A DNA stretch of 64,000 bases from Clostridia bacterium (GTDB taxonomy: Bacteria; Bacillota; Clostridia; Oscillospirales; CAG-272). Made by a program: the position numbers and the translations under genes. The stretch covers positions 37,556 through 101,555 of the forward strand of contig JAFVTH010000011.1 in NCBI GenBank assembly GCA_017503285.1. The letters are read 5' to 3'. Below are positions 55,740 through 59,594 of the stretch, piece after piece. Position 1 is the stretch's first letter. Each line of letters begins with the position of its first letter. The notes under the pieces are model-generated. The model was not told the origin of the DNA. It saw nothing but the letters and a program-made list of their open reading frames with translations, and made no database searches.

Positions 55740-57356
55740 TTATCGATATATGCACAAATTCTTTCGCGCGGCAATAACGCCACTGCTGCGGCTTTCGTCA
55801 TATGGCCCTACGAAAAAATCATTGTGTGCTTCAAGCGGAATATACTCATCCCAAGGTACACCAACACTATGAAAGCGCCCGTCGCCACCATAAACAGATA
55901 TGTAGTCAATGCGTGGAATGATATCATATGAAAATGCAGAAATACGCACCGTGTCCGTCTCTCCGTTTGCCTCAACAAAGCTTGACTTAAGTATAGCCTG
56001 CGTCTTTGTGTCGGGATGCACCACATATCTTGCATCTATGCAGTTTGCAAGCGCCTCACATTCCTTAGAGGAATATGTTTGCTTGTAGTCCGGAATAGGC
56101 ATAAGTGAATGGACAGGCCTTTCTTGATAAACAGGAATTGCCAAAATTGGTGCCAGGTCAAAATATACAGCCTTAAAGTATTCCTTGTTGCCCTCAATAA
56201 AGCTGCTTCTAATGGTGTCATAGGAGTAGGACATATAGCTCTGTGGCAAAAGGTTAATAGGTCTGCCTTGGCTGTGCTGTGTAATAATTCGGTTGGTTTT
56301 GTTTTCCTTGATAAAGGTAAAGTCATCGCCATAGCCCGTCTGGGAGCGAATTAAATCAACCATATTAGTTTGGGCAAGAGGCGTAAACAAAAGCCTAAAT
56401 TGCACCTCGTTGGTTCTGTCAAGTGCATAAAAAAGCACCTCAAAGTCAGAGTTTGACATGGTGGTAAAGTTAGAGTTTTGCTCAACAGCCTCGTCGTTAA
56501 GACGCTGCAGCTTTTTCTCCCCGCGCTTTATATACCTTTCAATCTCCTTGTCGCTCTTTCTGTCAAGATTAGTGGCATCTCTGGTAAAGCGCAAATCATC
56601 TCCGCCGAGAGAGCAGTAGTCAAGCACAACCTGCGTGTGGTAAAAGGGCTTGGGCTTAGTTACAGATGCATGCAGGGTCTGTGACCTTGTAACGGTATAT
56701 CGCTTGCCGTCACGACCACGGACGCTTTCTGTCCAGAAAATAGTCTTGTAGCCGTGATAGGTTTCTGTGCCCATTTTATGTATAAATTTGTTTTCAAACA
56801 AAAAGGGATTTCCGTTATACCTGCCTGCCAAAACATCAATTGCAGATTGTGCGCTGTCGTTGTAGTCCAAAAAGTCGTAATTCTTTATCATATCGACCTC
56901 TTGCTCCACAGAAAAATAAGGGGCAAAGTCAATAAGAGGAATAGTGGACTCAATTATATTTATGCAGTCCCTGTCTGTAAACAGCTCGTTTAGCGGTTGC
57001 ATTTGCGCGCCGGCAAGATTGAGCAGCTGTTGCCTTGTTGCCTCAAAGGATTCAATCTCTCCCTGTAGCTTTTTTATCAAGGGGTTAACCTTCAAAATAG
57101 CAAGAGGGATAAGTATAAGCGTGATAAAGAGTATAACCCTTAAAAATTTCCATAGCCCCAGCTTTCTTTTTAGCTTCTTTAGGGTGTCACCAAGTGCTAC
57201 ATATTCATTAACCGTTTTTCGGTTAGCCTCAATATCAACGCCGGACCTTGTAACAAGCTCATCGAAAAAGCTGGTGGTGTTTTGCAAATGCAGGGCGCAA
57301 AACTTGTTTTCATATTCCTCTAAAGGATTGTAAATCATATTGTCCAAAAGTCTCAC
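55740..57356 (-). CDS. 538-aa hypothetical protein with one TM helix, co-transcribed upstream of lemA
   Basis: Long intact ORF with TM helix LWKFLRVILFITLILIPLAIL near residue 70. A 22-nt gap separates it from lemA. The exact start is uncertain (GTG at 57356 or TTG/ATG a few codons in). Confidence 0.6.
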   Translation of the reverse strand: MRLLDNMIYNPLEEYENKFCALHLQNTTSFFDELVTRSGVDIEANRKTVNEYVALGDTLKKLKRKLGLWKFLRVILFITLILIPLAILKVNPLIKKLQGEIESFEATRQQLLNLAGAQMQPLNELFTDRDCINIIESTIPLIDFAPYFSVEQEVDMIKNYDFLDYNDSAQSAIDVLAGRYNGNPFLFENKFIHKMGTETYHGYKTIFWTESVRGRDGKRYTVTRSQTLHASVTKPKPFYHTQVVLDYCSLGGDDLRFTRDATNLDRKSDKEIERYIKRGEKKLQRLNDEAVEQNSNFTTMSNSDFEVLFYALDRTNEVQFRLLFTPLAQTNMVDLIRSQTGYGDDFTFIKENKTNRIITQHSQGRPINLLPQSYMSYSYDTIRSSFIEGNKEYFKAVYFDLAPILAIPVYQERPVHSLMPIPDYKQTYSSKECEALANCIDARYVVHPDTKTQAILKSSFVEANGETDTVRISAFSYDIIPRIDYISVYGGDGRFHSVGVPWDEYIPLEAHNDFFVGPYDESRSSGVIAARKNLCIYR

Positions 57357-57708
57357 CCCCCTATAATATTAATATACTACATTTTTCCCAAAATGTAAAG
57401 AAAAACCGACAAAAACCCACAAAACACCCAAAACCCGGGCGACTTTTCGGACAATTAAAGGGCAAAACTCAAAAAGCATGGCGAAAAATAGAAAAATCCA
57501 AGCTAGAATTCTCGCCATAGGCGAGGCTTTTGCCAACGCCTTATCCGTGAAGCAGACAACGCCTTATGGGCAAAAGAGCGCTACCCAAGGTAGCCCTGTT
57601 GTCGTTAGCCAATTAAACAGCGCAATAGTAGTATTGCTCGTTTTCTTGGACGACTGCCACTCCTTGTTTCTCGCTTTATCTCTCCCTAAGAGCGCTCAAA
57701 ACCATCCC

Positions 57709-57765
57709 CCAATCCAAAATCGCCGAGCAATTTTGGAGCTGGTTCAAAGACAGACCCCCCAGCCA
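57709..57765 (+). repeat. Copy A of a direct repeat (38-nt perfect core) ending in a mimic of the tRNA 3' end
   Basis: The core cccaatccaaaatcgccgagcaattttggagctggttc is identical at 57709..57746 and 59418..59455. It continues aaagacagaccccccagcca; compare the tRNA-Gln 3' end ...ctgggttcgaatcctagatccccagcca. Confidence 0.85.
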
Positions 57766-57878
57766 CAAAAAAGGACTCAGTAGAACCGAGATGGTTCAAC
57801 TGAGTCCTTTATGTATAAAGGCTACGAAAAAGATATTTTTTGCGGTTTACAGTAAGGATTCGAACTCCCGTACTCAAT

Positions 57879-58157
57879 CACGGCATAGCCGTGGATATCA
57901 TCAATTCCGCAGGAATTGTATATCACCAACGGCTTGCCGTTGTATATCATCATTGCGAAAGAGGATGCAGCCTGCGGCTGATGATATACTCGCCTTGACG
58001 AGATATGCTCGTCAAGGCGGATGAGATGCACGCTAAAGCGTGATGAGATACAGCCCCAAAAGGGCTGATGATATGCACCACGCTTCGCGCGGTGATGATA
58101 TGCCAAGCCTGCGGCTTGGATAAAAAATTCGACAAGCCGAAACTTGTCGAATTTTTT
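57879..58157. repeat. Array of ~10 different short hairpins separated by a conserved 8-10-nt linker (TGATGATAT / ATATCATCA), ending in a bidirectional terminator
   Basis: Hairpins lie at 57879-93, 57903-17, 57928-41, 57968-80, 57991-58019, 58029-42, 58051-67, 58076-94, 58103-19 and 58128-51. Linkers are RTATATCAYC for the first three units and the reverse complement (G)ATGAKAT for the rest. Confidence 0.7.
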
Positions 58158-58383
58158 GGCAGCGGAACTAGGGTATTCGCCTGTGGCGAAGATACCCGCG
58201 ACCTTTGCCTGAAAAGCAAGCTTTTCGATCTTCGGTCGTAGCAAAACGCATTTTTTTATTGTAAATTTTGAAAAGTAAAAGGTTTTATGTTATAATACTC
58301 TCAAAAAATAATTTTCAAAAACTTTTCTTGTATTCTCGTTTTCTTTCGGTATAATGTGTTTACCACCCGAAAGGAGAACGAAA

Positions 58384-58658: not shown

Positions 58659-58687
58659 TTGACAACAGTGAAAATCAGTGATATAAT
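58659..58687 (+). promoter_or_regulatory. Consensus sigma-A promoter for the 124-aa ORF
   Basis: TTGACA (58659..58664), a 17-nt spacer, then TATAAT (58682..58687). AAGGAG RBS before the ATG at 58718. Confidence 0.7.
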
Positions 58688-59324: not shown

Positions 59325-59342
59325 TGGCTGGGGATCTAGGAT
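59325..59342 (-). repeat. 18-bp perfect duplicate of the tRNA-Gln 3' end (att-like), preceded by its own terminator hairpin
   Basis: tggctggggatctaggat at 59325..59342 is identical to 59521..59538. A hairpin gaaagaaccgacc-cttgt-ggtcggttctttc lies adjacent at 59291..59321. Confidence 0.85.
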
Positions 59343-59417
59343 GCATTGCCATTGGCAATGAGTTGCGACAAGCCTCTGGTGAGCAAGCTCCCCGATGACT
59401 TTTGTCGCACTTGCGCA

Positions 59418-59472
59418 CCCAATCCAAAATCGCCGAGCAATTTTGGAGCTGGTTCGAAAACAGATCCCCAAA
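59418..59472 (+). repeat. Copy B of the direct repeat ending in a mimic of the tRNA 3' end
   Basis: It shares the 38-nt perfect core with 57709..57746 and then continues gaaaacagatccccaaacca. Its agatcccc is the reverse complement of ggggatct at 59330..59337. Confidence 0.85.
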
Positions 59473-59520: not shown

Positions 59521-59594
59521 TGGCTGGGGATCTAGGATTCGAACCCAGACATACAGAGTCAGAGTCTGCTGTGCTACCTTTACACAAATCCCCA
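59521..59594 (-). tRNA. tRNA-Gln (anticodon CUG), CCA encoded
   Basis: Hand-folded cloverleaf. Acceptor stem TGGGGAT/ATCCCCA, D stem GTGT/GCAC, anticodon stem GCAGA/TCTGT with loop CTCTGAC, T arm CTGGG-TTCGAAT-CCTAG, discriminator G plus CCA. 74 nt. Confidence 0.9.

Follow-up and report, generated by a model that had tools for sequence, protein, structure and literature searches.

What is the role of about 280 bp in a Clostridia genome that consist almost entirely of short hairpins? The stretch lies in a window of 64,000 nucleotides, the whole piece of DNA analysed here, and the original prediction described it as a hairpin array whose linkers switch orientation midway and which closes with an A-run/hairpin/T-run terminator. 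All of these were present: positions 57876-58160 comprise nine short hairpins and a bidirectional terminator, with three GYATMTCATC linkers followed by five of the reverse complement GATGAKATRC (Table 1). The exact sequence TGATGAKAT occurs at seven sites in the 64 kb, six of them within the array. Folding-energy z-scores were -11.7 for the + strand as DNA and -10.5 for the - strand as RNA (predicted fold -132 kcal/mol), and 0/200 shuffles matched the folding energy of the array.

Table 1 Features of the window array and its surroundings. Array parts were placed by direct reading and repeat search; positions are those of the whole stretch.
Feature	Position	Strand	Remark
Promoter-like site	57340-57367	+	could read into the array
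Inverted tRNA-Gln-like 3' half	57708-57765		beyond the 18-bp hairpin from the upstream block
18-bp hairpin	57770-57810		terminator-like on the - strand; between upstream block and tRNA-Gln-like half
Subfamily-B upstream block (ggctacgaaaaagatatttttt..gtttacagtaaggattcgaactcccgtactc)	57820-57875		includes T-arm-like GGATTCGAACTCC (57856-57868)
AATCA boundary motif and HP0 (acggc-ata-gccgt)	57876-57892	+	HP0 itself 57880-57892
L1 GGATATCATC	57893-57902	+	left arm (57893-57951)
HP1 aattccgcaggaatt	57903-57917	+	left arm
L2 GTATATCACC	57918-57927	+	left arm
HP2 aacggcttgccgtt	57928-57941	+	left arm
L3 GTATATCATC	57942-57951	+	end of left arm
Centre/junction: X (attgcgaaag, 57952-57961) and spacer (aggatgc)	57952-57968	+	spacer is a degenerate half linker
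HP3	57969-57979	+	start of right arm (57969-58119)
R1	57980-57989	+	right arm
HP4	57990-58019	+	right arm; 12-bp stem
R2	58020-58029	+	right arm
Hairpin between R2 and R3	58030-58041	+	right arm
R3	58042-58051	+	right arm
Hairpin between R3 and R4	58052-58066	+	right arm
R4	58067-58076	+	right arm
Hairpin between R4 and R5	58077-58093	+	right arm
R5	58094-58103	+	right arm
HP6 caagcctgcggcttgg	58104-58119	+	end of right arm
Bidirectional intrinsic terminator	58122-58157		A6 / 15-bp stem (9-bp G+C-containing, A:T-extended) / T6; repeat search
tRNA 3'-end remnant, 23-nt, reverse complement cgaataccctagttccgctgCCA	58157-58179	-	read from sequence

The window array is not unique. A pattern scan recovered homologous arrays at no fewer than 120 loci (three-digit L numbers below), with a chance expectation of <1 and in a sample skewed toward copies having three exact linker decamers; almost all came from Oscillospirales-type Clostridia MAGs. 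The canonical element is ~200 bp long, dyad-organised, and follows the fixed plan HP0-L1-HP1-L2-HP2-L3-X-spacer-HP3-R1-HP4-R2-HP5-R3-HP6-terminator, where L is GYATMTCATC and R is GATGAKATRC. Hairpin order is position-specific and fixed across copies, the two opposed decamer sets cover ~150 bp, and '---+++' is the dominant decamer orientation pattern among loci. Intact elements have an outward sigma-70 promoter or a T-arm-like block at the left end and an A-run/terminator/T-run at the right end, followed by a stable-RNA gene convergent with the array. The boundary motif AATCA (TGATT on the opposite strand, GTGATT in the window variant) was found in nearly all copies. The window copy has at least three decamers of each orientation with hairpins between them, AATCA on the left, and HP6 with an A-run terminator on the right; its right arm carries five GATGAKATRC linkers versus the canonical three. 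It is very probably a rearranged copy of this large unnamed family. The family is widespread in gut and rumen Clostridia and apparently undescribed, and our literature searches by motif, by context, and as REPs in Clostridia found no description of it. With Rfam 15, only tRNA and tmRNA reached the gathering score in the window, L017, L054, L176, and L125, and at E<=10 the array gave only C/D-snoRNA noise. If the family reading is true, a major gut/rumen bacterial clade marks its tRNA/tmRNA operon ends with an unnamed 200-bp structured element, a natural case in which the shape of DNA or RNA is selected while the stem sequence is left free. Arrays of this kind also break metagenome assemblies and yield spurious ORF calls.

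The comparative data refute any reading of the array as protein-coding sequence or as a chance or simple tandem repeat, to which we give next to no credence. ORFs of 57-140 aa traverse the array, and one gene prediction of the source contig includes a 140-aa product, but these ORFs have no family matches and homologous arrays show hairpin-length indels in any frame, with base pairing kept rather than codons. Because the indels are not multiples of three and family matches are absent, the ORFs are artefacts, as had been anticipated. Fold z-scores of about -11 and units that are not copies of one another count against chance and simple repeat amplification, the latter already doubted in the original prediction. 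A CRISPR array has repeats of at least 23 nt, unique non-palindromic spacers, and cas genes; this candidate was rejected since the repeat here is only 10 nt and the 'spacers' are palindromes position-conserved across genomes. Type III toxin-antitoxin loci of the ToxI type consist of near-identical tandem repeats of ~34-36 nt, then a terminator and a toxN-type gene. That candidate was also rejected: units are dissimilar and the downstream ORFs (71 aa and 124 aa) have no family matches.

Selection acts differently on hairpins and linkers. An alignment of 59 homologues gave 40 consensus pairs, of which 19 had compensatory changes (RNAalifold), all in hairpins, and hairpin positions were ~95% Watson-Crick with 38-52 distinct sequences per position. 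The expectation that stems differ while pairing is kept was therefore borne out, as was that of a linker conserved as sequence. The statement that every stem is different holds within one array but not across genomes, where each position is semi-conserved (e.g., HP1 aattccGCAggaatt). L006 and L035, both in one MAG, have hairpins distinguished by compensatory changes. The 10-12-nt X segment covaries with HP6; it is complementary to the HP6 loop and 3' stem over at least 10 nt in 49/65 canonical copies, with at least nine sequence types. Minimum free energy folds of either strand pair L with R decamers in 127/130 cases. Contingency tables gave no compensation between L and R, RNAalifold reported invariance only, and mismatches were systematic (C.A in 33/65 for L2:R2 and A.G in 25/65 for L3:R1). 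We reject L:R pairing as a selected helix given that the C.A and A.G mismatches occur uncompensated in 40-50% of copies; the pairing may still have some role. Compensated stems, uncompensated decamers, and decamer spacing free of helical phasing favour selection on a single strand.

Loops differ between strands, and the two arms are mirror images in this: the strand running toward the centre of the element has c(GNA)g or GNNA in either arm. G..A loops on the top strand were found in 36/58, 38/65, and 43/65 copies of HP0, HP1, and HP2, respectively, with 0-1 T..C loops, whereas HP3-6 had the reversed bias (e.g., T..C in 59/61 for HP6). G.T versus A.C mismatches are mirrored likewise, 7:1 in HP1 and 1:9 in HP5. 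The commonest loops are GAA/GCA/GTA triloops closed by C-G, a pattern that corresponds to the very stable DNA mini-hairpins of d(cGNAg) type. Neighbouring terminator hairpins, read on the tRNA strand, had UUCG in 18/55 and tetraloops in 34/55. The cGNAg-type triloops versus the UUCG/tetraloops of the adjoining terminators are a hint of folded ssDNA; G.T tolerance and G..A loops are compatible with both DNA and RNA folding.

The suggestion that the linker core UGAUGA represents a box-C/K-turn sequence did not survive. A K-turn or box C/D-like RNP platform would present UGAUGA kink-turns to an L7Ae/YbxF-type protein, and stem end plus linker do read UGAUGA in most right-arm units. In box C/D RNA a C box RUGAUGA pairs with a D box CUGA through tandem sheared G.A pairs; here neither CUGA nor any other strand that could supply the GA partner is present. 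Each hairpin has AURC as its 5' flank, and on any one strand half of the linkers lie in the opposite sense. The weak cmscan matches to C/D-box snoRNA models reach 14-18 bits (E 1-3) versus gathering scores of 36-55. We regard this reading as effectively refuted and extremely improbable.

Closeness to tRNA genes, which the original prediction had proposed to check, is a strong property of the family. Of 94 testable copies, 53 have the end of an intact, convergent gene for a tRNA (16 isotypes) or tmRNA at most 95 nt away. In canonical copies array and convergent gene have one terminator in common, whose good T-runs in both directions point to transcription of both strands as far as this site. 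An outward promoter is present in many copies, with HP0 overlapping its -35 box; in subfamily A this box, TTGATT, is made by the AATCA/TGATT motif. A strong transcription unit directly adjoins the element on one side and a promoter on the other. By eye we saw no promoter facing the array or at the dyad centre, and the conserved one points outward. Encoded CCA was uninformative as a sign of RNA-mediated insertion, as 79/80 non-adjacent tRNA genes likewise encode it. Some arrays have decamers in one orientation only. The one in phage L125 lies on the coding strand between RusA and terS, immediately upstream of terS and 1 kb from a primase-helicase gene; that in L078 lies on the coding strand immediately upstream of a gene. 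Most pattern matches on viral contigs were unrelated coding tandem repeats, and BLAST of phage genomes gave no match to the window array region.

This setting also suits a structured RNA made by tRNA/tmRNA read-through or from an unrecognised promoter, in which an L:R ladder with four-way-junction hairpins would act as an insulator, exonuclease barrier, RNase III-type site, or CsrB-like sponge. Predicted folds are extremely stable and nearly all pair L with R, the shared terminator has good T-runs in both directions, and the promoter-like site upstream of the window array (Table 1) could feed it. The element has a strong transcription unit on one side and a promoter on the other, and the one-orientation arrays of phage L125 and L078 lie within transcription units, where they would be transcribed in the 'T..C loop' sense. 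Yet the loop and G.T asymmetries are mirrored between arms, so no one transcript has all hairpins in the favoured sense, and the only conserved promoter is directed away from the array. The hairpins have mainly triloops, unlike the UUCG-type loops of adjoining terminators, the L:R helices carry systematic mismatches in place of covariation, one-orientation arrays keep no constant orientation relative to neighbour genes, and an Rfam match is absent. Like CsrB/RsmZ sponge RNAs, the arrays have many short conserved motif copies between variable hairpins; unlike them, they use a motif other than GGA, lack a dedicated promoter, carry the motif in both senses within one element, and have mirrored loop asymmetry. 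We judge a structured RNA somewhat unlikely, and the evidence leans toward a recombinase/ssDNA hairpin substrate over a protein-titrating RNA, the two options originally put forward.

Sites in duplex DNA would explain other features of the element. Here the decamers would be read as B-DNA in origin iterons, integrase arm-type sites, a polar transcription/replication roadblock, or a strong gyrase site, and the 3+3 layout would mirror a two-fold symmetric complex. This reading accounts for a 10-bp motif invariant across bacterial families, for two opposed sets over ~150 bp, and for the overlap of HP0 with the -35 box, but it gives no reason for compensated palindromic spacers or strand-specific loops. 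The phage L125 copy lies near a primase-helicase gene and terS, a common neighbourhood for origins or pac/cos sites, and integrase att regions are typically located at tRNA/tmRNA 3' ends, as the arrays are. Against this, decamer centres are 19 to 40 bp apart and show no helical phasing, no integrase or Rep gene was found among flanking ORFs, and at L151, a provirus junction, the array lies outside the phage, to the host side of the tRNA end that was displaced. That host-side position led us to reject the L151 array as part of the integrating phage. Overall we consider duplex sites unlikely.

Cassette-like arrangements were observed at a few loci. tRNA 3'-end direct repeats of 21 nt bracket terminator and array in L100, and in L054 and L109 such repeats bracket array and gene cassettes of 1.1 and 1.65 kb, respectively. 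tRNA-end duplications beside arrays occur in only 3-4 of ~75 loci; therefore most copies could be old host features, vertically inherited. Location and variable cargo are as in genomic islands whose tyrosine-integrase att site is at the T-loop or 3' end of a tRNA/tmRNA gene, and the arrays likewise show nested displaced 17-45-nt tRNA 3' fragments and, in L100, L054, and L109, a replacement tRNA 3' end and terminator supplied by the element. Unlike such islands they form units of 0.3-1.7 kb in which no integrase was found, with the array entirely on one side of the tRNA junction, and unlike known arm-type sites their decamers are separated by hairpins.

The cargo includes PF05635 (Avd-like) genes, and an array lay directly upstream of every copy examined, so that, among these copies, no gene of this very abundant family (>3500 sequence clusters) lacks an array as its upstream partner. 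If this holds, it offers a handle on PF05635 function. The PF05635 proteins of L176 and L180 are identical, and the former lies behind tmRNA, the latter behind tRNA-Ser. One identical protein goes with identical proximal array parts, yet distal arms and downstream genes differ, and breakpoints of these mosaics are at L2/HP2. Read from such junctions, arrays apparently recombine with one another at linkers. The smallest cassette units still contain the array, and by analogy with non-autonomous elements it would therefore be the cis-required part. We found no linked recombinase, transposase, or RT in 954 clustered neighbouring ORFs, nor by Pfam among 140 ORFs within 5 kb.

The reading that we prefer, tentatively and without calling it probable, is that the array is a folded ssDNA module read in trans, the cis part of small cassettes moving between stable-RNA gene ends. 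Each arm would fold on the strand running 5'->3' toward the centre, and one arm would therefore be active whichever strand is exposed, for example as lagging-strand template. Hairpin extrusion would line up the invariant decamers side by side to be read by a protein encoded elsewhere, and the array would thus be the cis-acting recognition and recombination module of the cassettes. A cassette would comprise terminator, array, and outward promoter, sometimes with cargo such as the PF05635 gene; cassettes would sit at stable-RNA gene 3' ends, move among them, and swap parts through crossing over at linkers. Family membership, architecture, covariation, mirrored strand asymmetry, tRNA/tmRNA adjacency, linkage to the PF05635 gene, and mosaicism are direct findings; ssDNA over RNA, the trans-acting protein, and mobility as the function are inferred. 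If true, this reading bears on the way in which small cassettes reach new stable-RNA loci with no integrase linked to them.

Several known systems resemble the proposed ssDNA module in part. Integron attC, CTX-phage attP(+), and IS200/IS605 ends likewise conserve structure while stem sequence is free. As in attC and other folded-ssDNA sites, short conserved motifs flank a hairpin of variable length, features are strand-specific, and gene cassettes and an outward promoter occur. Unlike attC, in which inverse core RYYYAAC and core GTTRRRY pair in the folded bottom strand, the arrays have no such cores, their hairpin flanks AURC and GAUGA are non-complementary, and many tandem hairpins follow one another without ORFs between; no intI, Xer, or TnpA gene was found among flanking ORFs. 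In proteobacteria, the REP/BIME elements and REPINs that RAYT Y1 transposases mobilise are also extragenic and multi-copy, lie just past transcription-unit 3' ends, consist of opposed hairpin-forming palindromic units with short linker motifs, are thought to act as folded single strands, and are rearrangement hot spots. In REPs the palindrome is conserved, whereas here the palindromes vary and the linker is invariant. The arrays further differ from REPs in their stereotyped 3+3 plan, position-specific hairpins, strong preference for tRNA/tmRNA ends, and Clostridia hosts, and no RAYT-like (Y1 HUH transposase) gene, of the kind typically flanked by REPs, was found among their flanking ORFs.

Diversity-generating retroelements (DGRs) provide a precedent for the ssDNA reading. 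Their Avd-containing machinery uses DNA hairpins in cis, with the stem sequence free but the loop strand-specific, 5'-GRNA (PMC3240598); PF05635 is a homologue of Avd (PMC10053308). The DGR target hairpin and the arrays have in common a variable stem, a strand-specific G..A loop, and an Avd-family four-helix-bundle protein. A DGR has one hairpin, downstream of the variable repeat, whose GC-rich stem has 7-10 bp and whose loop has 4 nt, whereas the arrays have seven, with 3-9-bp stems, mostly triloops, and conserved decamers. G..A loops together with an Avd-family gene occur in a subset of arrays, no RT was found in the flanks, and no TR/VR pair was seen on reading the flanking sequence. A more specific version, which we think quite improbable, is that arrays are folded-DNA landing pads where the Avd-like protein would recognise c(GNA)g hairpin-plus-decamer units and recruit a host enzyme, either a polymerase/RT or a recombinase, that inserts or exchanges cassettes of promoter plus gene. 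This would be a new cassette system targeting stable-RNA 3' ends, namely tRNA, tmRNA, and, for PF05635 in other phyla, 23S rRNA. If true, it would give the '23S rRNA intervening sequence protein' family a function outside DGRs.

The window copy itself has a complex history. The T-arm-like sequence noted beside the array is real and lies within the subfamily-B upstream block, which is kept beside HP0 in L017, L061, L038, L080, L102, L015, and L002. The sole defining family feature missing from the window copy is the match of X to HP6. It is alignable throughout with L017, L061, L006, and L047, being of L017/L061 type through R3 and of L006/L047 type beyond. It is therefore a chimera of two subtypes, produced by unequal recombination at a linker. 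The window-type terminator is also found behind the arrays of L017, L061, and L047. The 23-nt remnant after the terminator has ~17/22 identity to the 3' end of the tRNA-Gln at 59521-59594; neither ARAGORN nor Rfam called a tRNA at the remnant, and the order of array, terminator, and tRNA fragment recurs in L033, L034, L037, L063, L092, and L103. On the other side, where the hairpin and tRNA-Gln-like half lie, a 52-bp repeat is shared with 59418-59469. Later insertions separate the window copy from its own tRNA, and it is therefore probably a relic. The proviso that the region might be a decayed mobile-element fragment thus partly fits this chimeric, stranded copy but not the family, whose intact members keep their structure.

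The original prediction of a hairpin array with an orientation switch in its middle was confirmed by direct reading of window positions 57876-58160. Every interval between decamers was a perfect or near-perfect hairpin, six of the seven exact TGATGAKAT copies in the 64-kb window were inside the array, and folding of the region surpassed that of dinucleotide shuffles by ~11 standard deviations (as DNA on the + strand and as RNA on the - strand). Such an array lies far outside what chance would give, and both a chance and a coding origin were rejected, as was the suggested likeness to K-turn/box C/D elements, and an Rfam search returned no family for the window array. The surroundings, on a metagenome scaffold, were those of an ordinary Firmicutes-type chromosome (LemA, RNase M5, holA, tRNA-Gln). 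The terminator type that closes the array was found again at four related loci (L017, L047, L054, and L061). Both arms of its stem contain TGTCGAA or TTCGACA, which we take to be the Bacillus Spo0A-box consensus; the likeness is probably coincidence.

Features at the array locus (window coordinates)
Feature	Position	Strand	Detail
Reverse-sense decamers (3)			GGATATCATC, GTATATCACC, GTATATCATC
Junction			17 nt, between reverse- and forward-sense decamers
Forward-sense decamers (5)			GATGATATAC, GATGAGATGC, GATGAGATAC, GATGATATGC (twice)
Terminator	58122-58157		A-run/stem/T-run; closes the array
tRNA 3' remnant	58157-58179		23 nt; all that remains of the tRNA beyond the terminator
Orphan ORF, 71 aa	58384-58599	+	Near-consensus sigma-70 promoter upstream (58268-58296)
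Orphan ORF, 124 aa	58718-59092	+	Near-consensus sigma-70 promoter upstream (58659-58687)
tRNA-Gln	59521-59594		tRNA gene
Duplicate of tRNA-Gln 3' end, 18 nt	59326-59343 vs 59522-59539		TGGCTGGGGATCTAGGAT; 180 nt from the gene
Direct repeat, 52 bp	57708-57759 and 59418-59469		94% identical

A scan for three GATGAKATRC decamers spaced 8-38 nt apart, in one genome per species and with <1 match expected by chance, recovered at least 120 loci. The scan finds only loci with three exact decamers, most loci are MAG contigs, and the ORF calls within them are our own and crude. Nearly all matches were Clostridia MAGs from ruminants and other animal guts, including Acutalibacteraceae, Oscillospiraceae, 'Eubacteriales', Christensenellaceae, and Ruminococcus. 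One canonical array was on a 2.6-kb contig of a MAG labelled Spirochaetales (L039), probably a binning error. Matches in Nitrospirota, Desulfobacteraceae, and Bacteroidetes (among L018, L041, L072, and L101) were unrelated tandem repeats that include the decamer and have a coding-like period (33-42 nt). When decamers were clustered on both strands, the dominant plan was three reverse-sense then three forward-sense copies spanning about 140-155 bp (n = 65, no two alike in sequence). Oriented copies shared one order: AATCA and then HP0-L1-HP1-L2-HP2-L3 on the left; a central segment X (~10 nt), then an A/T-rich spacer with a half linker at its end; and HP3-R1-HP4-R2-HP5-R3-HP6, ATAAAAAA, the terminator stem, and TTTTTT on the right, where HP denotes hairpins and L and R the left- and right-arm decamers. 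Hairpin identity was semi-conserved by position, HP1 being mostly aattccGCAggaatt, HP2 mostly aaaacGAAgtttt, and HP6 cattgcTTTCgcaatg or caagccTGCggcttg. The fixed order and position-specific hairpins indicate a defined entity, not a loose repeat. One-orientation arrays also occur, one of them in a phage (L125 8645-8742, IMG/VR 3300018494_004896; also L135 and L143), where five units and a terminator lie between the RusA resolvase gene and terS, with a primase-helicase gene 1 kb upstream; candidate roles for this array are origin, pac/cos region, and leader of a late operon.

Stems and decamers appear to be under different kinds of selection. Hairpin positions were ~95% Watson-Crick paired with 38-52 distinct sequences per position, and compensatory double changes occurred in 19/40 consensus pairs, every one in hairpins (RNAalifold, 59 copies). 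Decamers were kept as sequence. L always paired with R in MFE folds, yet the bases facing each other did not covary: L2 was mostly GCATATCATC and R2 ended in ATAC (C.A in 33/65), and R1 began GATGAGAT in 26-27 of 65 copies, 25 of them opposite A in L3 (A.G). In 49/65 copies, representing at least nine sequence types, X was complementary to the HP6 loop and 3' stem for 10 nt or more, and the longest perfect run averaged 9.6 nt versus 5.6 nt in mismatched element pairs; X and HP6 together form a long-range inverted repeat that covaries. Taken together, the data require that selection acts on a fold of single strands and that the decamers are read sequence-specifically by a factor encoded elsewhere. 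An array of duplex-DNA sites would account for the invariant decamers but leaves the palindromic, covarying spacers without explanation, and we consider it improbable; decamer spacing of 19-40 bp without helical periodicity also argues against rigid duplex recognition and for hairpins looping out.

Loop sequences were strand-asymmetric, as mirror images between arms. On the top strand (L arm first), G..A loops made up 36/58 at HP0, 38/65 at HP1, and 43/65 at HP2, with 0-1 T..C at each; T..C loops made up 30/59 at HP3, 24/65 at HP4, 33/65 at HP5, and 59/61 at HP6, with 0-4 G..A at each. G.T versus A.C mismatches followed the same mirror pattern, and both asymmetries imply that each arm is 'written' on the strand reading toward the center. 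The favored loops were C-G-closed GAA/GCA/GTA triloops and GNNA tetraloops, the triloops matching the d(cGNAg) DNA mini-hairpin, known for its unusual stability. Neighboring terminator hairpins instead had mostly tetraloops, and in 18/55 the tRNA-strand loop was UUCG.

Of the 94 testable copies, 53 had the end of an intact gene for tRNA (16 isotypes) or tmRNA ≤95 nt beyond R3, against a chance expectation well below 1%. The gene was convergent with the forward orientation of the array and shared its terminator, giving the tRNA-strand order tRNA-CCA, A-run, hairpin, T-run, array, TGATT. Terminator and array followed tmRNA (ssrA) genes at L176/L177 (1855-2219) and L017 (470-825), with a PF05635 (Avd-like family) gene next at L176. 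Other copies had a 17-45-nt tRNA 3' fragment at this place and the intact gene 200-350 nt further on, past a small insert that had a terminator of its own, and in one provirus contig (L151) phage DNA began directly after the fragment. The array is therefore tied to the tRNA end, from which later insertions can displace it. On the side away from the tRNA, 23/63 copies had a promoter whose -35 box, TTGATT, was formed by the end of HP0 (spacer 16-18 nt, mostly 17; perfect TATAAT in 14, TG extension in 16); this promoter reads outward from the array, on the tRNA strand. A second subfamily (GTGATT), which includes the window copy, had a conserved T-arm-like block next. That the array is a structured RNA would fit the two-way terminator, the location of some arrays within transcription units, and the very high stability of the L:R ladder; we regard this as less likely than the folded single-stranded DNA proposed below.

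The only recurrent neighbor was a PF05635 protein of 114-119 aa, annotated either as '23S rRNA intervening sequence protein' or as four-helix bundle; it is homologous to the Avd of DGRs (PMC10053308). Its gene was behind the HP0-linked promoter in 13 loci, and an array was directly upstream in every copy with enough upstream sequence. Homologues formed >3500 clusters at 90% identity, mostly on contigs <2 kb. Rumen and gut metagenomes are extremely rich in this protein, and the contigs encoding it are for the most part 0.5-2 kb long and stop within the array, suggesting that short-read assemblies are systematically broken by arrays. Several observations point to movement and mosaicism. One identical protein was behind tmRNA in one assembly and tRNA-Ser in another; a second had three different downstream genes, and its upstream arrays were the same through HP0-L1-HP1-L2, then diverged. 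Direct repeats of tRNA 3' ends bracketed a bare terminator and array at L100 (21 nt) and array-gene units of 1.1 kb (L054) and 1.65 kb (L109). No integrase, transposase, or RT was found among the neighboring ORFs.

Tentatively, we favor folded single-stranded DNA, in which the array would serve small cassettes at the ends of stable-RNA genes as their cis module. This preference stems from the mirror-image asymmetry, by which one arm would be active whichever strand is exposed, from the contrast of DNA-type triloops with adjacent RNA terminators, from the fact that even the smallest duplicated units keep the array, and from mosaic recombination at linkers. DGR target hairpins, with free stems and strand-specific GRNA loops in an Avd-containing system, offer a precedent (PMC3240598). 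Rfam 15 and the searchable literature yielded no account of the family. It is nearest in kind to extragenic palindromic arrays of the REP/BIME type and to recombination sites made of folded DNA, for example attC, but here the logic is inverted (linker invariant, stems free), and the family differs in its fixed 3+3 plan, tRNA/tmRNA specificity, and PF05635 link. There is a modest chance that it is something beyond a variation on these kinds.

Aligned with relatives, the window copy was of the L017/L061 subtype as far as R3, counting from AATCA (the L017 array adjoins tmRNA), and beyond R3 had the hairpin-R-hairpin-R-HP6 of the L006/L047 subtype. It thus joins two subtypes by unequal crossover at a linker, which explains its 3+5 layout. 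Its X (attgcgaaag) has lost the match to its own HP6 (caagcctgcggcttgg). Between the tRNA remnant and tRNA-Gln were two orphan ORFs behind strong promoters, an 18-nt duplicate, and one copy of a 52-bp repeat. Neither ORF had a significant Pfam/PHROG match; the 124-aa ORF had a marginal one (phrog_25419, unknown function, E 0.0063). The 18-nt duplicate is a signature of a T-loop insertion that regenerated the tRNA end, and similar ~200-nt inserts with an inverted T-arm copy were beside tRNAs at seven loci (L033, L034, L037, L054, L063, L092, and L103). The 52-bp repeat resembled a degenerate tRNA-Gln 3' half (T-arm and acceptor) in opposite orientation to the real gene; the first copy ended in CCCCAGCCA, and a terminator hairpin followed each. 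The remnant, the duplicates, and the mini-array described below make the locus a stack of nested insertions, in which the window array is probably a stranded relic. In the same species from another sample (L002 1-256, joining the window at 57817), an extra 2+2 mini-array lay just upstream, almost perfectly symmetric, flanked on both sides by a terminator hairpin and bracketed by inverted 'ggctacgaaaaagatatttt' blocks; its absence from the window strain indicates strain-level structural variation at the locus.
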